Positions 44,787-64,000 of a stretch of DNA of 64,000 bases are shown here, one piece after another (the first letter of the stretch is position 1; each line of letters opens with the position of its first letter). Position numbers and translations under genes: made by a program. Under the pieces are notes generated by a model. That model made no database searches and was not told the DNA's origin. It worked only from the letters and a program-made list of their open reading frames with translations. The DNA is from Gemmatimonadota bacterium (GTDB lineage: Bacteria > Gemmatimonadota > Gemmatimonadetes > Palauibacterales > Palauibacteraceae): positions 527-64,526 of the forward strand of contig JBGMQU010000003.1 of assembly GCA_048060725.1 (NCBI GenBank), read 5' to 3'.

Positions 44787-45704
44787 ATGGCCCAGACGCT
44801 GTTCGGCGTCGAGATCGCCAGCCCGGTCTTTCTGGCGTCGGGCACGTGCGGGTACGGTCAGGAGTATGCGGACCTGATTCCGCTCGACGAAATCGGGGGA
44901 ATCTTCACGAAAGCCGTGAGCATCGAACCCCGCACGGGGAATCCCCCGCACCGCGTCGCCGAGACGCCGGGCGGGATGATCAATGCGATCGGCCTCGAAA
45001 ACGTCGGTCTCGACCGATTCATTTCCGAGAAGCTCGTGTGGCTTCGCGAGCACCTGACGCGAGCGCACGTGTTCGTCAACGTGGTCGGCCGAACCGCGGA
45101 CGAGTATGCGGCCGTCGTGTCCGGCCTCGACCCGCACGACGGGTTCCTGGGGTTCGAGATCAACGTGTCCTGCCCCAACGTGACGGGCGGCACGATGTTC
45201 GGTACCGACGAGTCGGCGCTCGCCGATCTGGTCGCTCGCCTCCGTAAGGAGACCGATCGTCCGCTGGTGATCAAGCTCACACCGAACGTGGCCGACGTCG
45301 GTGTCTTCGCGCGAATCTGCGAGGAGCAGGGGGCCGATGGGCTGAGCGCGATCAACACGTTCCCCGGCATGCTCATCGACACGGCGTCGCGTCGCCCGGT
45401 GATCGGCAATCGGTCGGGCGGTGTGAGCGGCCCCGCGATTCTCCCCATGGGCGTCTATGCGACGTGGCGTGCGCGGCAGGTGACCAAGATCCCGATCATC
45501 GGGATCGGAGGGATTCGAAACGGAGACGATGCGGTCCAGTACCTGCTGGCCGGGGCCGCCCTGGTGCAGGTCGGGACGGCGTCCTTCGTCGACCCTGACG
45601 CCGCCGTCACTACACACGCGGGGATACGGGACTATCTCGAGACCCACCGCGTGGCCCGGCTGGAGGATCTCGTAGGAACACTGATCGACCAACCTCCCGC
45701 ATGA
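44787..45704 (+). CDS. pyrD: Dihydroorotate dehydrogenase catalytic subunit (class 1B)
   Basis: The ATG at 44787 gives LFGVEIASPVFLASGTCGYG...GMINAIGLENVGLD...INVSCPNV...IKLTPNV...GLSAINT...GGVSGPAI...IIGIGGI. Confidence 0.9.
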   Translation: MAQTLFGVEIASPVFLASGTCGYGQEYADLIPLDEIGGIFTKAVSIEPRTGNPPHRVAETPGGMINAIGLENVGLDRFISEKLVWLREHLTRAHVFVNVVGRTADEYAAVVSGLDPHDGFLGFEINVSCPNVTGGTMFGTDESALADLVARLRKETDRPLVIKLTPNVADVGVFARICEEQGADGLSAINTFPGMLIDTASRRPVIGNRSGGVSGPAILPMGVYATWRARQVTKIPIIGIGGIRNGDDAVQYLLAGAALVQVGTASFVDPDAAVTTHAGIRDYLETHRVARLEDLVGTLIDQPPA

Positions 45705-47200
45705 CCGGGACCCGCGGGCTGGTGGATCGCGCGTCCGCCCTGTTCGAGGAATGGCGGGGCAGCGCCCCCGATGACGTCTCCCCGGTTGCCGGAGACGGTT
45801 CGGCTCGACGGTACTGGCGCCTGACCGGTCCGGACGGTGCCACCGCGCTCGGCGCGTACGGTCCCGATCGGGATGAGAACCGGGCCTTTGTAGCGTTTTC
45901 CCGCACGTTTCGGGAGATCGGCCTGCGCGTCCCCGAGCTTTACGCCGTCGACGAGGCGAGCGGTGTATGGCTGCTGGAGGACCTCGGCGACCGGACCCTG
46001 TTCGAGATGCTTCGGATGGCGCGCGAGCCTTATGATGACCGGTTTCCGGAGACGATGCTCCCCATCTATCGTCGCGTGCTCGAGGAGTTGCCGCGTTTCC
46101 AGGTGTTGGGTGGGCAGTCGATCGACTTCCGGATCGCCTATCCACGGGCGGCGTTCGACCGCCAGTCGATCCTCTGGGACCTCAACTATTTCAAATACCA
46201 TTTTCTCAAGCTCGCGCATCTCCCGTTCAACGAGGCGAAGCTGGAAAAGGACTTCGGCCGGCTCGCCCGCTTCCTGCTGACAGCCGAGACCGGGCACTTC
46301 CTCTACCGGGACTTCCAGTCGAGGAACGTGATGGTGCGCGACGGCGCCGACGGCCCGGAGCCGTGGTTCATCGACTATCAGGGAGGGCGGCGCGGCGCGC
46401 TCCAGTATGACGTCGCGTCGTTGCTGTACGATGCGAAGGTCAACCTGGACGATGGACTGCGAGCCCACCTGCTCGACCACTATCTCGAGGCGCTCGCTTC
46501 GCACCACGCGATCGATCGGTCGGCTTTTCTCGAGACCTGGCCGGGATACGTCCTCGTCAGGATTCTCCAGGCGCTCGGGGCGTACGGATACCGCGGCTTT
46601 TTCGAGCGAAAACCACGGTTCCTGCAGAGCGTCCCATACGCGGCGAAGAACCTGGCGGGCCTTCTGGACGCGGGGTTGCCGCTGAATGTCCCTGAGCTCG
46701 AGACGGCGCTCACGCGGATCGTCGAACGTTGGGGAGAGTCTGTCTCCACGGATACGGTGGACGATACGCTCACCGTGTCGACTGGCAGCTTCAGGTTTTC
46801 GGGCGGGTACCCCCAGGATACGAGCGGGCACGGTGGCGGCTACGTCTTCGATTGTCGCGGACTGACCAACCCGGGGCGGGAGGAGGAGTATCGGCGTCTC
46901 ACGGGGCTCGATCGACGCACGATCTCGTTTCTCGAGGGACGGCCGGAGGTAGAGGCTTTCTGGGATCGGGTGCGGACGCTCGTCGATGCGCACGTAGTGG
47001 AGTACCGCGAGCGCGGGTTCTCCCACCTCAGCGTGTACTTCGGCTGTACGGGCGGGCAGCACCGGTCGGTGTACTTCGCGGAGCGGCTTGCGGCTCATTT
47101 GCGAGACGTGTGTCCGGATGTGGGGGTGAACGTGGTGCACCGGGAGAGCGCGGATTGGCCCCGACCCCGGGGGAGTGAGGGGCGGCCGTGCAGGCAATGA
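45701..47200 (+). CDS. AmgK-like amino-sugar (MurNAc/GlcNAc) anomeric kinase fused to a RapZ-C-terminal-like domain
   Basis: Residues ~1-340 form an APH-fold kinase with AGDGSARRYWR and LYRDFQSRNVMV, which match the AmgK signatures GDASxRRYxR and HRDxxSRNLM as I recall them. Residues ~372-499 read SFRFSGGYPQD...YVFDCRGLTNP...LTGLD...VYFGCTGGQHRSVYFAERLA. This aligns with the E. coli RapZ C-terminal domain ([24 protein letters not shown]...MTGLD...IGCTGGKHRSVYIAEQLA). The start overlaps the pyrD stop (ATGA). Confidence 0.75.
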   Translation: MTGTRGLVDRASALFEEWRGSAPDDVSPVAGDGSARRYWRLTGPDGATALGAYGPDRDENRAFVAFSRTFREIGLRVPELYAVDEASGVWLLEDLGDRTLFEMLRMAREPYDDRFPETMLPIYRRVLEELPRFQVLGGQSIDFRIAYPRAAFDRQSILWDLNYFKYHFLKLAHLPFNEAKLEKDFGRLARFLLTAETGHFLYRDFQSRNVMVRDGADGPEPWFIDYQGGRRGALQYDVASLLYDAKVNLDDGLRAHLLDHYLEALASHHAIDRSAFLETWPGYVLVRILQALGAYGYRGFFERKPRFLQSVPYAAKNLAGLLDAGLPLNVPELETALTRIVERWGESVSTDTVDDTLTVSTGSFRFSGGYPQDTSGHGGGYVFDCRGLTNPGREEEYRRLTGLDRRTISFLEGRPEVEAFWDRVRTLVDAHVVEYRERGFSHLSVYFGCTGGQHRSVYFAERLAAHLRDVCPDVGVNVVHRESADWPRPRGSEGRPCRQ

Positions 47201-47943
47201 TCCTCGCCGCAGGCGAAGGGCGGCGGTTGCGCCCGGTCACCGATCACACGCCCAAGGCCCTGGTGGATGTGGGGGGTGCCACCGCGTTGGAGCGGGTTGC
47301 CGCGGCGCTGGCCGCGGCAGGTGTGGATCACCTCATCGTCAACGCGCACCACTTCGCGGACGAAGTCGAACGGGCGGCGCTCGAGCTCGTCCGGCCGGGA
47401 CTGCGGGTCACCGTGTCGCGCGAGGACCACGAGTCTGCCTCGGCCCTCGAGACGGGCGGAGCGCTGGCGTTCGCCCGGGAGAGGTTCGATGGAAACGCAC
47501 CGTTTTTCCTGCACAACGCAGATGTGCTGACCGACCTGGATCTCGCCGCGGTCTACGATTCCCACGTTCGAGGTGTGATCGACGACGGTCGCCTCGCGAC
47601 CCTCGTCGTAACTCGACGCGAGACCACTCGGCCTTTGCGTGCCGACGAACTCGGGATCTACGGGCGCGCCAACCGCACGGAAGGGTGGGATGTGGCTTAC
47701 CGACAGCCGGTCGGACCGACGCTCGAGGTCGGGTTCTCCGGAATTCACGTGTTGTCTCCGGGGATCCTGCGGCATTTCACGGCGGGCGGGGCGTACTCGA
47801 TCATCGATGTGTACATGAGGCTCGTGGCGGCCGGCGACGTCATCGCATGCTACGACGCGACCGACTCGTCGTGGTATGACATCGGGACCCCGGACCGGCT
47901 TGCCGACGCCCGAGCCGTCTTTCAAGAGGAGGCAAGCGAGTGA
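47188..47943 (+). CDS. murU: N-acetylmuramate alpha-1-phosphate uridylyltransferase-like nucleotidyltransferase
   Basis: MQAMILAAGEGRRLRPVTDHTPKALVDVGG parallels the MurU/NTP-transferase N-terminus MKAMILAAGKGERMRPLT. The gene directly follows the AmgK-like gene. Confidence 0.75.
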   Translation: MQAMILAAGEGRRLRPVTDHTPKALVDVGGATALERVAAALAAAGVDHLIVNAHHFADEVERAALELVRPGLRVTVSREDHESASALETGGALAFARERFDGNAPFFLHNADVLTDLDLAAVYDSHVRGVIDDGRLATLVVTRRETTRPLRADELGIYGRANRTEGWDVAYRQPVGPTLEVGFSGIHVLSPGILRHFTAGGAYSIIDVYMRLVAAGDVIACYDATDSSWYDIGTPDRLADARAVFQEEASE

Positions 47944-50540: not shown

Positions 50541-52496
50541 CTAGCCTGTGGCCCCCGCGGTGACCGCCGGGTCCGCGTCGGCCACAGCGGACGTCTCCGC
50601 CGACGCCGCGTCGGGCTCGATCGAACGGACTGATTCCAACGCCGCTTTCTGCAGACCTACGATGCCGCGCTCCAGCCACTCGTAGTCGCCCCCCATGATG
50701 TCCTGAGCGATTCGGTAGTCGTGCGTGTCGTGGTTCGACCGAATGTGCCGGAACAACTCGCCGATCCGTCGCCGGGATGAAACCGCGAAGGAGTCGGCGA
50801 GACGCGCCGCTTCCTCTGCCCCTTCGTGCCCCTTCCGTTTCATCATGTCGGCCTTGAGCACCGTCGCGGAAATCGCGAACAGCTCGGCGCAGATGTCGAC
50901 GCACCGGAACAACAAACCCTGACGCTTCTCGAGCGCACCGCCGTGTCGGACCATCAGGTGGAAGATCGTGCGGGCCAGCCTTCGACTGGTTCGCTCGACA
51001 TAACGCAGGTGCTTCGCGGCGGGGCCGAATCGCGAGTACTTCGGCGGCAGGCTCCACCCCAGCCAGCGCGTCGGATACCACCATCCGTAGAAGAGCGCGG
51101 CCCCGGGGAGCGCCTTGAGCTTGGCTCCGAACCCGAGCGTCGGATCGACGAGGTCGCCCGCGATCTGGAGGTGCTTGTCCACCGCCTCACGAGCGATGAA
51201 CAGACGCATGATCTCGCTCGACCCCTCGAAGATCCGGTTGATCCGGAAGTCACGCAGCCACCGTTCGACCGCGATGGGTGCTTCGCCACGTGCCGCCAGC
51301 GAATCGGCGGTCTCGTAACCGCGCCCGCCCCGCACCTGGAGCGCGTCATCGGTCACGCTCCACCCCGTCTCCGTGTTCCAGAGCTTGGCGACGGCCGCTT
51401 CGAGTCGGATGTCGTACCCGCCCCGGTCGGCCATCGTCTGCGTCAGATCGGCAATCGCCGACATGGCCCAGGTGCGAGCCGCGATCGAAGTCAGGTAGTG
51501 CGCGATCGTCTCGTGCTTCCCGATGGGCACACCCCACTGCACACGACTGGCAGCCCATTCGCGGCAGACTTCGAGCGCCGCCTGACAACCGCCCACGGCG
51601 GATGCGGGAATCGTCAGACGACCCGTATTCAATGTCACAAGGGCCAGCTTGAGGCCTCGCCCCTCCTTCCACAGGAGGTTCTTTTTCGGGACGCGGACGT
51701 TGGTGAACCGGATGACCCCGTTCTCCAGCGCCCGGAGACCCATGAAGTGACAGCGGATGACGACCTCGACGCCCGGCCAGTCTCGCTCGACGATGAACGC
51801 CGAAATCTTTCCGGAATCGGGATGCTTCGCCATCACGACATAAAGTTCGGCGAGCGTCCCGTTCGTAATCCAGAGCTTGTCGCCGTTGAGGATGTAGTGC
51901 TCCCCGTCTTCCGTGATCTCGGCCGTCGTCGCGAGCCGGGCGGGATCACTGCCTACATCAGATTCGGTCAGGGCGAATGCGCTGATGGCACCCTTCGCGA
52001 GGCGGGGGAGAAACTCTTTCTTCTGCTCTTCCGTCCCGAACGTCTTCAGCGGCTGCCCGAGGCCGATCGACTGATGGGCGGACAGCAGAGCGACGAGGTT
52101 CCCGTCGACGCTGCCGACCATTCGCATCGCGTTCGCGTACTCGGTCTGATTGAAGCCGAGGCCCCCGTACTCCTGCGGTACCTTGATCCCGAACGCCCCG
52201 CGGTCCGCGAGCGCCCGTACGATTTCCGGCGGGATCTGTCCTTCGCGATCGATGGCGTCGGAGTCGACTTCATCACGGAGAAACGTCCGGAGTTCCTCGG
52301 TCCAGTCCCGGGCCCGATCGGAGAGAAAATCTTCGGGGTCCGGGTACGGATCGATCGCGTCGAGCCGGAAGTTCCCGAGGAACAGATTCCGGACGAACGT
52401 GCGGCCCGTCCAGTCCTTTTCTCGCGCGTCCTCCGCGACTTGTCGGGCTTCCGCCTCGGTCACGTGCGTGCCGCCCTGCTGGTCCGTCTGCGACAT
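50541..52496 (-). CDS. Acyl-CoA dehydrogenase, long form with C-terminal extension domain
   Basis: ACAD N, M and C domains are present ([32 protein letters not shown]), plus a ~200-aa C-terminal domain. I chose the ATG at 52496, which has an AGAGGG SD-like sequence upstream. The track start at 52619 would add a 41-aa AT-rich, atypical extension. Confidence 0.85.
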
Positions 52497-52801
52497 TGGG
52501 CCCTCTATATGTGAAGCGTTGATGCCATAAAGATCATAAAGATAAGGATGTTTGAAGAAATACGGCAGGTCGCGGTAACGATACCTACGCGACCAATCCC
52601 GAATCCAGGGTTTCAACACCCCTTCGTGTGTCTTGCCGAAGGTTGCAGGGATCGTACCCGTCCAATGCCTGCGTGGCCTGCTCCCAAACGTACCGCGCCC
52701 GCTTGAACACGGTCAACGCGACCCCGGTGTTGGAAGCCCCGTCACGGGCGACTTTTCGACCCGGTTCGCCCGCACGTTCGGGACATTTCGTCCCGGGCCC
52801 C

Positions 52802-54445
52802 TCACGGGCCCGACCCCCGCCGGAGGCGGGGCAGCGCCTGACGGACCTCGGCTCGGGTGAGTCCGAGCAGCGATGCGTGCTCCACCAGCGCATCCAGGTC
52901 CACGGGGTATGCGCCAGCTCGGCTCGGGTCCGCCAGACCCGCGACGTTTCGGGGGGCGATCAGAGCCGCGACCACGTCGTTCGGAACGGGGCAGACGTCG
53001 CGTCGCCCTCGGTGCCCGTCGTCGTGTCCGCGCGCCAGCCTGCTCGATGCCGCGCGGATGGCCCCCCGAATCACGGGATCCGTGGCGCCCAGGAACCCGA
53101 TATCGACCCAGCCTCCGGGTTCCGGCGCCGGACAGAGCCGCTGCCAGGCCTCGGAGTAGCTGGCGGCTGCGAAATACAGGTGCGTCCACGCCCTGAACGC
53201 CTCGAAGTCGCCCCTGAGACGAACCGCGGATCCGGTGAGGGCCATGATCGTCTCCGCTTCGGTCCTCAGCAGTTCGCCGTAGCCTTCGACGGCCGCCTCG
53301 GTCGGCCACTCGCCAGAATCGGGAGCCAGGATGCCGGCAAGTCGCTCGACCGCCGCCAGGCTCCACGCGATCCCGGTCGAGAACATCGGGCTGGCGAAGC
53401 AGAAGGTATGCGGAAGGAGGGCGAGTCCGGGCGCCGTCGCGCGGTCGAGAAGCCGCTGTAGACGTTTCGAAGAGCCGATCGGCCGTACCGTACGTGCGTC
53501 GGCGAACTGCTCACGAAGCGTCGGATACCGTTCGATGAGCCGCGACCACGAGTCTTCGGGGTCCATCGCCAGTATCGCGGCGGCCTCGGGGTGTTCGCGG
53601 TCGACCAGAAAGCCCGCGCTGACCAGGCCGTCATCGAACGGGAGCACGTACATCCAGCCCTCCTCGAGGAGGTGGTGGATGGCGGCGCGTTCTTCGGGAT
53701 AGGGTGCCGGCGGGAGAACCGCGCCGCCCGCTTCGGCGATCGCGGCAAACGAACCGACGGCCTCGAAATGGCCGAACACGAGACCCGTGTTCGGTGGTCT
53801 CGCCGCTCCCTTCGGGGCGGAATCCGGCCGCGAAGCCACGACGTCGATGCGGTTACCGATCGGAAGGTGTCGCGCCGCGAACCCACCGGCGCCCGAGGCA
53901 TCGACGAGGAATTCCGCGTCCAGCCGCAGGCGCCTGCCCCCTCTACGTCCCTCGACGCGCCAGCGGTCTCCCATCCGTTCGAGTCCGTCGAGCTCGCAGC
54001 GATCGATGTACTCGACGCCCTCGTCGACGGCCCGGGCCACGAGGTGCGCGTCGATGTCGGCGCGCAGCCAATGAGCGTCGGCGATCTCGTCGTCGGGGCT
54101 CGCCGCCACGAGCAACCGTCGGGCGTTGTACGCGTCGTTCGCGAAGGGTTGATCGCCGGAGTGCGCGTAGAACGTGAATCCCCGCTTCAGGCCCCGTCGC
54201 AGACCGGGCAGTTCGCGTCCCCACCGCCCGTAGGCGGCCAGGGCCGCCAGATCCGGGAGGCGGTAGTCACGCGCGAGCCGCTCGAGACAAAGGGCCGCCA
54301 GCGGAGTCGACGACTCACCGATCGCGAATCGCGGGTGCGTCCCGCGTTCCAGGAGCGTGACCCGCCGACCGCGCGACGCGAGCAAGCGGGCGAGGATGGT
54401 CCCCGCGAAGCCGGACCCGACGACGATGACGGTTCGCGCATCCAT
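52802..54445 (-). CDS. FAD-dependent oxidoreductase, flavin-halogenase-like fold
   Basis: VIVVGSGFAGTILARLLASRGRRVTLLERG is a GxGxxG Rossmann fold, and FAIGESSTP is present. EGWMYVLPF occupies the position of the halogenase WxWxIP motif but is degenerate. The protein is 547 aa. Confidence 0.65.
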   Translation of the reverse strand: MDARTVIVVGSGFAGTILARLLASRGRRVTLLERGTHPRFAIGESSTPLAALCLERLARDYRLPDLAALAAYGRWGRELPGLRRGLKRGFTFYAHSGDQPFANDAYNARRLLVAASPDDEIADAHWLRADIDAHLVARAVDEGVEYIDRCELDGLERMGDRWRVEGRRGGRRLRLDAEFLVDASGAGGFAARHLPIGNRIDVVASRPDSAPKGAARPPNTGLVFGHFEAVGSFAAIAEAGGAVLPPAPYPEERAAIHHLLEEGWMYVLPFDDGLVSAGFLVDREHPEAAAILAMDPEDSWSRLIERYPTLREQFADARTVRPIGSSKRLQRLLDRATAPGLALLPHTFCFASPMFSTGIAWSLAAVERLAGILAPDSGEWPTEAAVEGYGELLRTEAETIMALTGSAVRLRGDFEAFRAWTHLYFAAASYSEAWQRLCPAPEPGGWVDIGFLGATDPVIRGAIRAASSRLARGHDDGHRGRRDVCPVPNDVVAALIAPRNVAGLADPSRAGAYPVDLDALVEHASLLGLTRAEVRQALPRLRRGSGP

Positions 54446-54452
54446 CCCGCCC

Positions 54453-55412
54453 TCAGTCGCGGCAGTCGCAGGGGACGCGCGCCCCGAGGACTTGCTGCAG
54501 ATTCGCTGCGCTCAGCCGCTCGACGCGCCGAACGGCGCAGCGGGCGCAGGTCGACAGGCGATCGGCGTCCCACAGGTCGGCGTCCACGATCATGATCTCC
54601 CCGACCTCCTCGAGCGCGAGTTCGAGGGCATCCTCGAGATGTCGGAGCCTGACCGGTCTCAGGTCGCCTCGTGTCGCGAGGTCGTCGAGGATCCCGTTGC
54701 CGCGCCGGAGCGGGATCAGCGACAGTCGCTCGACCCCGAGGTCGGCGGCGAACCGCGCGGAACGCACGGCCCACTTCGCGAACTCGCTGGGGGGCACCCA
54801 CGGGAGCCCGACGAGCACGAATGCTCGCGTCCCGATGTCGCGTTCGCGTGCCCACTCGACGGCATCTTCGAAATCGGCGAGCTCCATCCCCTTGTTGAGT
54901 CGCGGAAACACGACCGGGTGGACCGTCTCGAGCCCCATGGCAATCTCGAGACGCCCCTCGAGGGCGTGTGCCAGCACGGCGGCTCGTTCCCCGACGAGGC
55001 GCGCGTGCGTTTCCACGGTGACCCGCGCGAACCGCTCACAGAGGCGCACGAGCGCCGCATCGTCGGACGGAGGTGCCGCCCGCGCGTCGAAAAAGTTGCT
55101 CGCGTTGTACAGTTTCAGTGCATCGGCTCTGCCGATGGGTTCTGCGCCCCGGTCCGCCTCCTCGAGGGCGAGCGCCAGCTGGGTGGGCAGCGCCCCGGGA
55201 GGGGTCGGGCCATCGAGCGTGTGTCTCCAGAGGTCACAGAACAGGCAGGTGAACGGGCACTCGGCGCCGGCCAGGAATACCGTCAGAACCCGACGCCATT
55301 CTGTCCTCACCCCCCGCTCGATGTCCCACCGCTGGCCGATGGGACGGGCGGGGTCCACCGGTTCCCGGGCCGGGCGGAGCGCGCGAATCTCGCGGGTCCC
55401 GGGGCTCCTCAC
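54453..55412 (-). CDS. Radical SAM protein
   Basis: FLAGAECPFTCLFCDLW contains the CxxxCxxC cluster motif near the N-terminus of a ~319-aa TIM-barrel-sized protein. A C-terminal Cys cluster is also present (STCARCAVRR...VPCDC). The gene lies 7 nt upstream of the flavoprotein gene. Confidence 0.7.
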   Translation of the reverse strand: MRSPGTREIRALRPAREPVDPARPIGQRWDIERGVRTEWRRVLTVFLAGAECPFTCLFCDLWRHTLDGPTPPGALPTQLALALEEADRGAEPIGRADALKLYNASNFFDARAAPPSDDAALVRLCERFARVTVETHARLVGERAAVLAHALEGRLEIAMGLETVHPVVFPRLNKGMELADFEDAVEWARERDIGTRAFVLVGLPWVPPSEFAKWAVRSARFAADLGVERLSLIPLRRGNGILDDLATRGDLRPVRLRHLEDALELALEEVGEIMIVDADLWDADRLSTCARCAVRRVERLSAANLQQVLGARVPCDCRD

Positions 55413-55425
55413 CCGGGCATTCCGA

Positions 55426-56748
55426 TCATGCGTGGAGCGACTGAAAGTGCCGGCGATACCGCGTCTCGCTCGTGAACAGATCGACGGTCACCTCCTCGTC
55501 CGCCGCCCCGTGCTGGAAGCGCCGCTTCGGGAACACGGGCATCTCGATCCCCGTGATTTGTCGGAACCCGCTCGCGACCACCTCTCCCTTGAGGCGGTAC
55601 AGCGCTTCGTGGGAGCCCCGCGTGAGTTCGCGGAAGGGAATCGCTTCAGACACGCCGATCACGCGAGGTGACGAGAGAGGGGAGAATTGACGGAAGCCAT
55701 GGAGTCGGGCCGGCGCATACCCGCGCACGCAGCCCCGGCTCAAGCCGCCCGAGTACGTGAGCGAGTGCTTGATCGCGTCGACTCCCCACCCTTCGTGATA
55801 CAGCATGCGGTTGTTCACGACGCTGCGGATGGTGAGCTCCGGGTTTTCCTCGATCGGATAGTCCTTCAGGTTCTCGTCGCCCCCGTCTCCGTCGATCAGG
55901 TACTTCCAGGCAGGATAGCGATCCCGGATGCCCTGCAGGAGCGCGAGCGCGACCGCCGCGCACTCGACGTCGAGGGCCTTGTAGTCCTCGATCACCTCGA
56001 CGGCGCGAAGCGGTTTCACGGCGGTGCGGGACACTTCGATCGGTTCGCCCAGCATCTCGAGTCCCGTCGCGGACAGGAACCGACGGGCCTGATCTGCGTC
56101 GTCCCCCCCGCCGTCGACCGACAGCGTGAACGCCTTCAATCTCGATGGCGACTGCCCGAGATCGAGCAGTGCACGGTAGGTCGCGAGGAGCACCGCCCCG
56201 CTGTCGACTCCTCCGGAAAACAACACGCCCAGCGGCTCGTCGATGGGGATCGACTCGATCGTGTCTCTCACCTCCGCGAACAGCGCCCCAACGTACGCCC
56301 GCCCAATCGCGTCAACGTCGGCGGGGAGCGTTTCGCGGGGCGGGTCGAAGAACCTGCGATACACCGGGTTGGGATCGGGGCACCCGACGAGCCGGATTTC
56401 CGTCACGTGGTGGGCCGGCACCATACGCGTATACGACGGGTGGAACTGATCCGCGTAGCCCGCATCCATGAGCACGTCGCGGATGGCATCGATGCGATCG
56501 GAAACGACCAGCATGGGGCCGTCCGTCTCCTTCGCGAGGAAATACCGGAGCGGCCGGTCGAGGCTTCGGGCCAGCCGGACGACTTCGCCGTCGCGGGCGT
56601 ACAGCGCGAAGGAACCCTCGATGTCGAGTACCGCCCCGGGGTCTGCCGACAGTAGCCGGGCCCTGGCCTCGTCGAGCTCGAGACCCCGAATGGCCTGGGC
56701 TTCGGGCGAGATCGCATCGACGATGCGTGCAATGGTCGTTTCGTACAT
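55426..56748 (-). CDS. Asparagine synthetase B / beta-lactam synthetase-like ATP-dependent amidoligase lacking the Ntn Cys
   Basis: The PP-loop is GVLFSGGVDSGAVL. The N-terminal ~170 aa resemble a degenerate GATase-II domain (SFALYARDGEVVRLARSLDRPLRYF). The protein starts MYETT, so there is no Cys2 nucleophile. The gene lies 13 nt upstream of the radical SAM gene. Confidence 0.7.
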   Translation of the reverse strand: MYETTIARIVDAISPEAQAIRGLELDEARARLLSADPGAVLDIEGSFALYARDGEVVRLARSLDRPLRYFLAKETDGPMLVVSDRIDAIRDVLMDAGYADQFHPSYTRMVPAHHVTEIRLVGCPDPNPVYRRFFDPPRETLPADVDAIGRAYVGALFAEVRDTIESIPIDEPLGVLFSGGVDSGAVLLATYRALLDLGQSPSRLKAFTLSVDGGGDDADQARRFLSATGLEMLGEPIEVSRTAVKPLRAVEVIEDYKALDVECAAVALALLQGIRDRYPAWKYLIDGDGGDENLKDYPIEENPELTIRSVVNNRMLYHEGWGVDAIKHSLTYSGGLSRGCVRGYAPARLHGFRQFSPLSSPRVIGVSEAIPFRELTRGSHEALYRLKGEVVASGFRQITGIEMPVFPKRRFQHGAADEEVTVDLFTSETRYRRHFQSLHA

Positions 56749-57014
56749 ACGTGCGTGCCCCTCCTCGTCATCCGAGTCATCCGACGGGTTTCGCGTGCCT
56801 GCGCCCAGGATGCTGTTGAAAACCCCTGGTCGGTCACGTTATGACGCCGTAGCCCCGGATCCAACTGCTGTACCGGCGAGGCGTCCGCGAAGGAAGGGGA
56901 GAGGCCCCGTCGTCCGGAGCATGAATGGGTGACCGCCGCATCGCGGAGTCTCGTTCCGCGGAGCGCGCAGAAATGTGCGACGGCCACCCGTGTCGGCGTT
57001 TCGGTCGTAGCCTT

Positions 57015-61882: not shown

Positions 61883-62407
61883 CTACGAGGTGATCAGGTC
61901 GAGGATGTCATCGATGGCGCCCTCAGCAATCTGTTCCAGTTCGGCAGGGGAGCGGTTCTGGATCGGGTGCGGAACCCAGACGATCCCCGGCTCGAACCCG
62001 AGCGACCGCGACTGCTTGGCCGCCGCGTCCCGGAACTCCGTCGTCACGACGAAGCAGCCCGGTACGCCCCGGTCATCGAGCGCCTTCAGGTCGTGCAGAC
62101 CGCACGACGTGCAGGATCCTCAGTCGGCGAGTGCCTGGACGACGGCGTGCGCCTCCGTCGCGATCCGCTGGAGGATGTCGGGGGAGGCGGTCCGCGCGTT
62201 CGTGGGTTTCCTCGATCGGATCGTGTCGACGCCGCGCGCGGTCAACCGCATCTCGAGATAGTCGAGGAACTCCTCACTGCGCGCCTTCCCGATCCCCTGG
62301 AGGGCGACGACCTTGCCGACAAGGCTGGCCGGCGGGGCCCTTCGGGGCCGGACGACAGGTTCCGTCTCGGCCGTAGGGTCGCACAGCACATTGACCGCGT
62401 CGTTCAT
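61883..62407 (-). CDS. Selenoprotein with U-G-S-C redox motif (UGA-recoded; 174 aa, Sec at residue 96)
   Basis: The track ORF ends at TGA 62120-62122, but the same frame stays open for 78 more G/C3-rich codons to TAG 61883-61885. Hand translation gives MNDAVNVL...EAHAVVQALAD-U-GSCTSCGLHDLKALDDRGVPGCFVVTTEFRDAAAKQSRSLGFEPGIVWVPHPIQNRSPAELEQIAEGAIDDILDLITS. A SECIS-like hairpin lies 11 nt downstream of the UGA. The ATG at 62407 overlaps the stop of the upstream gene (ATGA). I recall a curated family named 'UGSC family (seleno)protein', and this should be verified. Confidence 0.8.
62090..62108 (-). promoter_or_regulatory. Bacterial SECIS element (apical stem-loop)
   Basis: The minus-strand RNA reads UGA-GGAUCCUGCAC-GUCGUGC-GGUCU-GCACGAC, a perfect 7-bp stem with a GGUCU loop. 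Numbering the U of UGA as +1, the loop spans +22 to +26, with G at +23 and U at +24. This is the same geometry and GGUC loop as the E. coli fdhF SECIS, as I recall it. Confidence 0.75.
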
Positions 62408-63855
62408 GTCCGGATCTCCCTCGTTACCGGATGCGAATGCTCGTGAGCCCGCCCGCCCGGCCAGCCGGGCAGGATCGCCGAGAACAGCCCTGCAGGCCCG
62501 CCCGCCCGGGCGATCAGCAGGCCGTCTGGGGGGAACTTCGGGATCATGTCGTCCGCCCGCGAGGCCGGCATGCCCTCCCCGACGCCGCCCGCGCCCTCGA
62601 TGAGATCCCGGCCCGGCCGGGTGGTCGCGTCGGTCAGCGCACGGGTGATCCGGGTCCGATCCCAGCCGGCGTCCCGGAAGATCGCGTAGTGCTCCGGCGA
62701 GAGCAGGAGCAGCGTGAACGCCCATTCGCAGAGCTTCGGGTGGCCGACCGACACGAGGCTCATCGCGAGAGACCGCACCAGTTCTTCGGGGGTGCGGGAC
62801 TGCTGGTCCACGAACCCCTGCACGCCCTCTCCCTGGAACAGCGTGACCGCGTTACGGCCCGGGGCGACGCCGCGCGACGTGGCGAGCGGCTCCCACTCCG
62901 GGTCGGACTCGTCTTCGGCGAAACACTGCGTGAACTTGCTCGCCGAGCCGAACGTCGCCCGGTCGATGCCGCCCGGCCTCCCGCCGCCGACGTTCTGGAC
63001 GATGAGGTTCAGCGCGCGACCGATTGTGGCGTTCGCCCGATTCCCCTGGCCGAGGACGTTGATTCCGGAGTTCATGCCGAGTCGACGGGCCATGGGGCCG
63101 TTCACGATGATGACCGGGGTGCTGAAGCAGGTGCTGCACAGAATCGCGTGGAGCGTGAAGCCCGGTTCCAGCGCCGCCTCCACGATTCCCAGGAGGAGCG
63201 GCATGTACTCCGGCCTGCAGCCGGCCATCACCGCGTTGATCGCCACCTTTTCGACGGTGCACTCCACGAGATCGGGCGGGATCTTCCCCACCATCTCCTC
63301 TGCCGGACGGGGCGTGCCCCCGAGCATCCGCACGATTCGCTCCGGCGTGGGGGGGACCACCGGGAGCCCATCCGTCCACCCCCGGTCGAAACAGGTTTCC
63401 ATCGGGTCGGTGAACTCCGGGACGTGAATGAGGCGGGAGCTGAGGCCGGTGTCCCCGTAGCGGACCAGAAGGGTCTCCGGAACTCCCGGCTCCACGGATT
63501 TTGAACCGCACCCAGGCCGATGCTTCGGGAGTCCCTCGCCGAGACCGTCGATCTCCGTCAGCCGCTCCCAATCGGCGCGGTTCCACCCGACGACCCGATC
63601 GATTTCGTCTCCGTCCACGAACCGAATCAGCGTCGGGACGGTCTCGATTCGCAGGCGAAAGGAGTGCTCGAGCGATCGGTCATCGATTACCCCGTCGACG
63701 TCCGGGGGGAATCCCGGATCGTCCTGGCTGTACACGACGATCTCGGCGTCGGCGGTGCTCAGCCGGTGAAGGACCGGCCCGACGAGCCGGCAGGCGGGGC
63801 AGTCCTCCTTCACCACCGCGACGAGCCCGGTTCGCAGAGGGTCGGAACCCCTCAC
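62404..63855 (-). CDS. Thioredoxin-fold (CPAC) domain fused to a ~380-aa domain of unknown function
   Basis: The GTG at 63855 lies 5 nt after the upstream stop; the track start at 63972 would overlap the upstream gene. The N-terminus LVAVVKEDCPACRLVGPVLHRL...VPTLIRFVDGDE is thioredoxin-like with a CxxC motif. The large C-terminal domain is Cys-containing and I cannot name it (CFDRGWTDGLPVVPPT..., AILCSTCFSTPVIIVNGP...). Confidence 0.7.
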   Translation of the reverse strand: MRGSDPLRTGLVAVVKEDCPACRLVGPVLHRLSTADAEIVVYSQDDPGFPPDVDGVIDDRSLEHSFRLRIETVPTLIRFVDGDEIDRVVGWNRADWERLTEIDGLGEGLPKHRPGCGSKSVEPGVPETLLVRYGDTGLSSRLIHVPEFTDPMETCFDRGWTDGLPVVPPTPERIVRMLGGTPRPAEEMVGKIPPDLVECTVEKVAINAVMAGCRPEYMPLLLGIVEAALEPGFTLHAILCSTCFSTPVIIVNGPMARRLGMNSGINVLGQGNRANATIGRALNLIVQNVGGGRPGGIDRATFGSASKFTQCFAEDESDPEWEPLATSRGVAPGRNAVTLFQGEGVQGFVDQQSRTPEELVRSLAMSLVSVGHPKLCEWAFTLLLLSPEHYAIFRDAGWDRTRITRALTDATTRPGRDLIEGAGGVGEGMPASRADDMIPKFPPDGLLIARAGGPAGLFSAILPGWPGGRAHEHSHPVTREIRT

Positions 63856-63859
63856 CTGC

Positions 63860-64000
63860 CTACCCGCTCCCCGGAGCCGCCTCGAGACGGTAGGCGACGA
63901 CCCAGGTGACGTCGAACTCCCCCACCTCGAAGGCCCACACGCGGTCGCCGGAAGCGGCAACGAGCTTCGCATGGTCCGGGGCCCGGAGCTCGCCGAGGTA
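63860..64000 (-). CDS. Hypothetical protein (partial; 5' end beyond the right window edge)
   Basis: Hand translation of the open minus-strand frame gives ...YLGELRAPDHAKLVAASGDRVWAFEVGEFDVTWVVAYRLEAAPGSG, ending at TAG 63860-63862. Codons are G/C3-rich. I do not recognise a family. Confidence 0.4.
   Translation of the reverse strand, partial: YLGELRAPDHAKLVAASGDRVWAFEVGEFDVTWVVAYRLEAAPGSG

Follow-up and report, generated by a model that had tools for sequence, protein, structure and literature searches.

A conserved three-gene module of Gemmatimonadota, Acidobacteriota and other bacteria encoding an AsnB-fold ligase, a RaSEA/MnmL-like radical SAM enzyme and a halogenase-fold flavoprotein

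Three adjacent genes, here designated A, B and C, were analysed on the minus strand of a 64,000-nucleotide (nt) stretch of a Gemmatimonadota bacterium (GenBank assembly GCA_048060725.1, contig JBGMQU010000003.1, positions 527 to 64,526), the whole of which is referred to as the window. The trio is a real, self-contained module in which genes for an AsnB-fold ligase, a radical S-adenosylmethionine (SAM) enzyme and a flavoprotein of the halogenase fold recur in the same order in several bacterial phyla. Its best explanation, to which we assign a probability of roughly 0.35, is that the A-B core, usually together with C, modifies a substrate already present in the cell, since no scaffold-building genes travel with the trio. 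A preliminary description of this DNA, made from the sequence without database searches, had reported three minus-strand genes 13 and 7 nt apart; direct reading of coordinates and junctions gave the same arrangement, and the motifs quoted there were found in place (SGGVDS in A, CPFTCLFC and a C-terminal Cys set in B, WMYVLP in C). The three genes are the following.

Gene A, 55426..56748, minus strand: open reading frame (ORF) of 440 amino acids (aa) with an ATG start; predicted AsnB-fold PP-loop ATP-dependent adenylating or amide-forming enzyme.
Gene B, 54453..55412, minus strand: ORF of 319 aa with a GTG start; radical SAM enzyme, a divergent full-length relative of RaSEA (TIGR01210) and of MnmL/YtqA (TIGR01212).
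Gene C, 52802..54445, minus strand: ORF of 547 aa with an ATG start; flavin-dependent halogenase-fold protein of the phenolic (PltM/CtcP) type.

Protein A is encoded in at least 556 species-representative genomes, a lower bound obtained by scanning one genome per species. The carriers belong to Gemmatimonadota, Acidobacteriota (Thermoanaerobaculia, including Ca. Multivoradales, and Vicinamibacterales) and Verrucomicrobiota, joined by two metagenome-assembled genomes (MAGs) labelled 'Deltaproteobacteria' and one Lysobacterales MAG. More than 8000 database relatives of A were found, the best 120 of which are 69-100% identical and come from Gemmatimonadota, Thermoanaerobaculia and others. Gene order was evaluated in 84 fetched loci, counting only those long enough to judge (76 for B, 65 for C) and including four whose B gene begins before A ends. 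The gene next to A on the same strand is B in 71 of the 76 evaluable loci, and C follows B in 58 of the 65, so that the single cassette proposed earlier is borne out by co-occurrence and neighbourhood; the A-B junction is most often a 4-nt overlap. The flanks of the trio are wholly different between lineages, and all-against-all clustering of ORFs of at least 90 aa yielded no fourth shared gene, only lineage-specific synteny such as SusC/SusD-like genes in Gemmatimonadaceae, tmk/holB-like genes in Acidobacteriota and his/HAL/HisS genes in some Thermoanaerobaculia.

The three proteins also diverge together, their pairwise identities being correlated (rho 0.68-0.81). Median identity to the window protein is 66% for A, 47% for B and 46% for C; A is 60-73% identical to its orthologues in other phyla, with a mean of 63% between phyla against 66-73% within them, and by this measure is the most constrained and conserved member. 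Co-conservation, gene order, family relationships and the retention of catalytic motifs are thus matters of direct observation. They refute the view that three unrelated housekeeping genes stand side by side by chance, for which nothing speaks beyond the membership of each gene in a large superfamily: the genes keep one order and orientation between different flanks in several phyla, the stop codon of one gene can overlap the start of the next, distances are correlated, and no trio protein reaches the cut-off of any curated housekeeping family. The probability left to that view is vanishingly small.

Within the module, A and B form an old, deep core to which C is a frequent rather than universal addition, because C is sometimes missing while divergent A-like genes still pair with B. 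C is absent from L030, L076 and L082, and the neighbours found in C-less loci are mutually unrelated (TonB-like, thioredoxin-like, patatin and TPR proteins), none of them a recurrent substitute. Conversely, two divergent A-like genes (45-46% identity, in L091 and L095) are followed by B-like radical SAM genes of 28-35% identity, whose products keep the CxxxCxxC motif and, in L095, also the C-terminal CxxC...CxC.

No copy of A was found in plasmid and phage collections, and the module is best explained as chromosomally inherited. A defence-system or phage origin was considered and rejected, as PADLOC gave no matches and PHROG a single negligible one. A, B and C all score below the curated NCBIfam cut-offs, and literature searches on the trio (by its three enzyme types, TIGR01210, RaSEA, the carrier phyla and Gemmatirosa) returned nothing, which agrees with the earlier statement that the trio matches no described pathway; nor does any of the three proteins map to a well-characterised housekeeping subfamily. 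As far as could be found, neither the combination of enzymes nor the isolated A family nor such broad conservation has been described; each protein comes from a known superfamily, and there is a real chance that the chemistry is new. The product of the trio is very likely important to the carrier cells, because the module is intact in hundreds of species and one of its members is about 63% identical between phyla.

Protein A matches Pfam Asn_synthase (PF00733) with 38.8 bits against a cut-off of 21, and scores 30 bits against TIGR01536, the model for glutamine-hydrolysing asparagine synthetase B, whose equivalog cut-off is 267.1. The PP-loop SGGVDS occupies residues 178-183. In a broad profile search this loop, together with a DGDGGDE stretch aligned to SGEGSDE of asparagine synthetases, reached E 4e-14, and the invariant K408 ('PKRRFQHG') lay opposite 'RQKEQFSDG' of E. 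coli AsnB in a second, weak stretch that is not significant alone. An AlphaFold model built from 17 orthologues, with a moderate predicted local distance difference test (pLDDT) score of 64, retrieved human and E. coli asparagine synthetase, carbapenam synthetase (CarA), beta-lactam synthetase (beta-LS) and TsnB9 with Foldseek, over about 400 columns at probability 1.00 and 13-18% identity. The marks of the AsnB superfamily, namely the PP-loop SGGxDS, the GEGSDE-type acidic motif and the two-domain fold, are all found in A, and its adenylation machinery looks intact. The family is nevertheless isolated: it accounts for 704 of 1.8 billion cluster representatives at E<=1e-3, and it contains two long, family-specific invariant segments (residues ~101-134 and ~286-343) without AsnB counterpart. 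Single-sequence searches returned no solved-structure relatives of A or B.

The N-terminus of A reads MYETTIARIV, and Cys is missing ahead of residue 123 in all orthologues. The PP-loop begins at residue 178, against ~235 in E. coli AsnB, and the N-terminal domain is ~55 residues shorter. Because the N-terminal Cys is missing throughout the orthologues and the PP-loop stands so early, the glutaminase domain is predicted to be inactive as well as shortened, which confirms the earlier reading of A as an AsnB-fold enzyme without its Cys nucleophile and adds the truncation. A shares the two-domain fold, SGGxDS and the GEGSDE-type acidic motif with AsnB, beta-LS, CarA and TsnB9, and with beta-LS and CarA also the lack of an N-terminal nucleophile; it differs from them in its low identity (13-18%), its shorter N-domain and its operon partner.

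The preliminary description had drawn from this a likeness to beta-lactam or carbapenam synthetase, within a small-molecule cassette; in this version A would form a lactam by intramolecular closure, and C would act as a monooxygenase or reductase. At the level of the fold the likeness stands, CarA and beta-LS being among the closest folds of A. A is also devoid of glutaminase activity by prediction, the four loci with a lone A (three of them in Verrucomicrobiota MAGs) would suit a self-sufficient intramolecular reaction, and the absence of a strict WxWxIP motif would suit the role given to C. In sequence it does not hold, since A is only 13-18% identical to beta-LS and CarA, and its profile matches to them (E 1e-3 for beta-LS, 0.03 for CarA) cover the PP-loop only, compared with E 4e-14 for asparagine synthetase. 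Clavam- or carbapenem-type partner genes occur in 0 of the 84 loci, the catalytic Lys of halogenases is invariant in C, and lactam closure would leave a RaSEA-like enzyme without a role. Such a cassette is, on balance, unlikely.

Protein B has a Pfam Radical_SAM match and carries the cluster motif C52-x3-C56-x2-C59 (CPFTCLFC), which is 100% conserved. The additional C-terminal Cys cluster noted earlier is also a family feature: its four residues (C289-x2-C292...C315-x-C317) are 89-94% conserved and may hold an auxiliary cluster or zinc. The match of B to the RaSEA model TIGR01210 is full-length and colinear, with residues 34-317 aligned to positions 7-295 of 313. TIGR01210 is the best match in 48 of 48 B orthologues (best E 3.9e-26, all scores being far below the 212-bit cut-off), and 31 of the 48 also match TIGR01212 (MnmL/YtqA), for which window B reaches 25.3 bits against a cut-off of 180 over residues 155-235 only. 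Subfamily assignment by hidden Markov model, proposed as a check in the preliminary description, therefore gave a consistent direction for B, towards RaSEA in 48/48 and MnmL in 31/48 orthologues, without any cut-off being reached. The resemblance to RaSEA and MnmL had been missed there and is the most informative lead. The model of B (pLDDT 95) has an Elp3/PFL-AE-like barrel; its most complete superpositions are with the radical SAM domain of Elp3 bound to tRNA (TMq up to 0.60), and SkfB and SuiB are among the other fold matches. NCBIfam and Pfam searches detected neither a SPASM nor a twitch domain.

Protein C matches Pfam Trp_halogenase and DAO, scores 60 bits against the CmlS model (cut-off 900) and aligns over residues 4-434 with PltM (6bzt) and CtcP (7xgb) at E~1e-32 in a PDB sequence search. 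The GxGxxG motif for binding flavin adenine dinucleotide (FAD) is conserved as VGSGFAG at residues 9-15, as is the F-x-D-P-x-F-S-x-G motif, and K87, aligned to Lys87 of PltM, is 100% conserved in 59 orthologues; a K87A mutant of PltM is inactive (PMC6424973). C thus shares GxGxxG, the catalytic Lys and F-x-D-P-x-F-S-x-G with PltM and CtcP over ~430 residues, and differs from them in having GWMYxLxF in place of WxWxIP and in standing outside a polyketide or pyoluteorin-type cluster. It also has a C-terminal region of its own (~440-547) with conserved APRNVAGL and YPVD motifs. At the WxWxIP site the window protein reads WMYVLP and the family consensus is GWMYxLxF, in which the first Trp is invariant, the position of the second Trp is held by an aromatic Tyr and the Pro is not conserved. 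Because this form occurs throughout the family, it is a fixed trait rather than decay. The degeneracy of the motif had been taken earlier as an argument for a monooxygenase or reductase instead of a halogenase; that argument is not supported, the catalytic Lys being invariant. With K87 invariant and a family-wide motif change that keeps an aromatic residue, halogenase-type chemistry remains the default reading for C, which may also hydroxylate instead of halogenating.

Two characterised systems provide a frame for the pairing of A with B. In the archaeosine pathway ArcS attaches lysine first and RaSEA then converts preQ0-Lys-tRNA to archaeosine, the nitrogen comes from lysine, whereas NH4+, Gln and Asn do not serve as donors, and ArcS must be bound to RaSEA to be active (PMC11298593). 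MnmL/YhcC converts cmnm5s2U to nm5s2U by removal of the carboxymethyl group (bioRxiv 10.64898/2026.05.18.725915). RaSEA and MnmL alike strip an amino-acid-derived group of its carbon skeleton, while the nitrogen of that group stays on the substrate. As proposed here, A-B would resemble the ArcS-RaSEA pair of Euryarchaeota in joining an amino-acid-attaching transferase to a skeleton-removing radical SAM enzyme of the TIGR01210 family, and in delivering nitrogen independently of glutamine and ammonia. The differences are that A is an AsnB-fold PP-loop ATPase whereas ArcS is of the ArcTGT/PUA type, that the presumed acceptor is a carboxylate instead of a nitrile, and that the carriers of the trio are bacteria, with a halogenase-type flavoprotein attached. 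No ArcS/ArcTGT-like gene was found in the trio loci, where the partner of B is AsnB-like, and the parallel would be one of logic, not homology. MnmL/YtqA/YhcC belongs to the same radical SAM neighbourhood as B and likewise cleaves a C-N bond, removing a glycine-derived carboxymethyl group, but it works by itself on cmnm5(s2)U-tRNA, and no AsnB-like gene is linked to it.

From these relationships we infer a substrate, an order of steps and a chemistry. In the first step, A would bind ATP at its PP-loop and adenylate a carboxylate of the substrate. A secondary amide would form when a co-substrate, in the simplest case an amino acid, attacks the acyl-AMP through its amino group; since A lacks the nucleophile of a glutaminase and has a shortened N-domain, it should be unable to draw ammonia from glutamine. 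In the second, the 5'-deoxyadenosyl radical of B would cleave the C-N bond on the donor side, so that the nitrogen of the donor would stay behind as a primary amide or amine. In the third, C, guided by the invariant Lys87, would use FADH2, O2 and halide for the halogenation of an electron-rich ring, phenolic or heteroaromatic, in that substrate, or would hydroxylate it if the Trp-to-Tyr change opens the flavin site. Coupling followed by trimming is proposed because A is predicted to adenylate without glutamine-derived ammonia and because its constant partner B comes from the one radical SAM clade known to trim amino-acid donors from a nitrogen. We tentatively suggest, as a possibility that is itself doubtful, that the A-B pair is an unrecognised route for glutamine-independent installation of nitrogen on a carboxylate, that is, a bacterial, ATP-driven counterpart of ArcS-RaSEA, coupled to a flavin-dependent halogenase in a widely conserved, housekeeping-like module instead of a cluster for secondary metabolites. 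The target of such an A-B-C pathway could be an undescribed common metabolite, cofactor or nucleoside of Gemmatimonadota and Acidobacteriota.

Several observations weigh against this explanation. Window B reaches 51.8 bits against the TIGR01210 equivalog cut-off of 212.15, and its chemistry may differ from that of RaSEA. ArcS, the partner of RaSEA, is unrelated to A and not ATP-dependent. The model of A has a pLDDT of 64, and the two most conserved segments are its least confident parts. C lacks the strict WxWxIP motif. Finally, L075, L077, L080 and L084 (three from Verrucomicrobiota MAGs, one from an unclassified bacterium) contain A with neither B nor C within 8 kb, which suggests that A can work without B, for example with free ammonia or intramolecularly.

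Some of the same evidence could be read as pointing to the modification of tRNA or rRNA nucleosides, with B acting on a modified base, A amidating or extending a carboxyl side chain and C oxidising or halogenating the base. The sole characterised relatives of B are tRNA enzymes, its most complete superpositions are with the tRNA-bound radical SAM domain of Elp3, and a module of this kind needs no scaffold-building genes. The constraint on A is unusually strong (63% mean identity between phyla), and the neighbours are housekeeping-like in Acidobacteriota (thymidylate kinase-like and Pol III delta'-like genes) and include HisS in some Thermoanaerobaculia. However, NCBIfam and Pfam searches recognised no RNA-binding domain in A, B or C, the proteins are not basic (median isoelectric points 5.8, 7.0 and 6.6), the distribution is confined to few phyla, and we know of no halogenase-fold enzyme that acts on RNA. 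An RNA target is therefore possible though rather doubtful.

A ribosomal peptide or a protein from elsewhere in the genome is very unlikely to be the target. A would then be a side-chain adenylating enzyme resembling lasso cyclases, B would modify peptides as a radical SAM enzyme, and C would be a Trp or Tyr halogenase or hydroxylase of the QhpG/LodB kind. AsnB homologues without glutaminase activity do include the lasso cyclases, SkfB and SuiB are among the fold matches of B, and C has weak NCBIfam matches to QhpG, GoxB and LodB; these matches, however, cover little beyond the FAD-binding N-terminus, and B has no detected SPASM or twitch domain. Clustering of ORFs of 18-120 aa within 900 nt of the trio in the 84 loci produced only Arg-rich shadow frames and local synteny, with no conserved small ORF in any lineage, in line with the earlier remark that no precursor-peptide ORF is adjacent. 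Compared with lasso peptide cyclases, A is without an adjacent conserved precursor, a leader peptidase (transglutaminase-like) or an RRE protein, and no leader peptidase, RRE domain or exporter is co-conserved with the trio.

If the proposed logic of coupling, trimming and ring modification is right, the AsnB superfamily would gain a new nitrogen-transfer route, RaSEA/MnmL-type C-N trimming would reach beyond the two known tRNA cases, and a halogenase-type enzyme would have a role akin to primary metabolism. Few soil phyla are as abundant and as poorly understood as Gemmatimonadota and Acidobacteriota, and the carriers of the trio comprise hundreds of soil and sediment bacterial species. The system is compact, with three genes only, and directly testable. 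Gemmatirosa kalamazoonensis (CP007128, at about 4,646,014-4,650,160) carries the trio on a complete genome and is presumably available as a cultured isolate.

In the window, the ATG of A is preceded by a GAGGAGG ribosome-binding site. The A/B junction reads TGA, 13 nt, GTG, and the B/C junction TGA, 7 nt, ATG, with a GAGGG-type Shine-Dalgarno sequence at the latter, all read from the sequence. The G+C content of the trio (0.67-0.69) is the same as in the remainder of the window. One further element was delimited.

Upstream intergenic region of A, 56749..57014, minus strand: 266 nt, read directly; presumed promoter and 5' untranslated region.

This region contains no match to the sigma-70 consensus, and the promoter and terminator scan was uninformative. 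An Rfam search for a riboswitch or leader RNA at the trio gave no match even at E<=1. The 266 nt show no similarity to the upstream regions of other trio loci, and upstream sequence is kept among close relatives only. The neighbours of the trio are a 121-aa lipoprotein-like ORF, a sortilin/BNR protein and an acyl-CoA dehydrogenase; as described earlier, no transporter and no nonribosomal peptide synthetase or polyketide synthase adjoins it in the window, nor does a conserved small ORF. The dehydrogenase (50541-52619, minus strand, 692 aa, with a C-terminal domain of the ACAD9/ACADV type) is encoded on the same strand as C, 182 nt farther downstream; it was rejected as a member of the module for want of co-conservation with the trio, and the lipoprotein-like ORF and the sortilin/BNR protein are likewise not co-conserved. 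Farther away, the plus-strand region 45701-47943 encodes an APH-family phosphotransferase fused to a RapZ C-terminal domain (PF22740, 499 aa), an unusual fusion, and the end of its gene overlaps the start of an NTP_transferase gene (251 aa); this pair of kinase and nucleotidyltransferase resembles AmgK/MurU-type sugar recycling. At 62404-63972 on the minus strand, an ORF of 522 aa without Pfam match at E<=1e-4 has a CPAC motif near residue 58.

Gene neighbourhoods in other lineages were also recorded. In the related Thermoanaerobaculia genomes of L004 (1-19160), L087 (1-15616) and L009 (4250-7512), the trio is flanked by histidine-related genes. L004 and L087 have hisG, hisD, hisB/C and a HisZ-like gene on one side, with extra his genes in L004, and on the other an aromatic/histidine ammonia-lyase (HAL), HisS and an EgtD-like (Methyltransf_33) gene; for L009, inspection of the sequences by eye identified HAL-like and HisS-like ORFs only. 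This setting could point to a substrate related to histidine, or reflect no more than local synteny. Nine loci of Acidobacteriota or 'Deltaproteobacteria' (e.g. L058, L072, L073, L079, L081, L083 and L014) have genes downstream of C that, as judged from their sequences, resemble thymidylate kinase and DNA polymerase III delta', sometimes 55-150 nt after it and on the same strand, which is a housekeeping setting rather than a biosynthetic cluster. FG-GAP/UnbV_ASPIC (CRTAC1-like) repeat proteins are encoded a few kb from A in two different phyla (L001, 17599-21332; L075, 3203-5065), and a protein of L076 (8527-10437) resembles that of L075 at the N-terminus only; this proximity is probably coincidental, the family being common in these groups.

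Three database proteins, P0253, P0354 and P0285, at first sight long forms of A or A+B fusions, were rejected as frameshifted A+B read-throughs with Arg-rich out-of-frame stretches, artefacts that could mislead surveys of domain architecture.

More distant A-like genes, at 30-43% identity, stand in other gene contexts. In L085 (137-6518) and L089 (2144-8317), from organisms of 47% and 59% GC, A-like genes of ~31% and 43% identity directly follow Liv-type ABC uptake systems of five genes (BPD_transp_2 twice, ABC_tran twice and Peripla_BP_6) and are themselves followed by a large protein without Pfam match, the two large proteins being mutually unrelated. Uptake systems for amino acids or organic acids beside two distant A-like genes give a weak hint in favour of the mechanism proposed above. 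In L086 (5533-8499), L092 (5095-8969) and L096 (1-2364), A-like genes of 35-40% identity occur without B or C in archaeal-looking contexts (FtsZ, eIF-2 beta, deoxyhypusine synthase, archease, and RtcB with an intein), and in every case a gene for a regulator with two HTH_AsnC domains points away from the A-like gene. In L092-L094 the A-like gene is preceded by a PF14518 haem-oxygenase-like gene.

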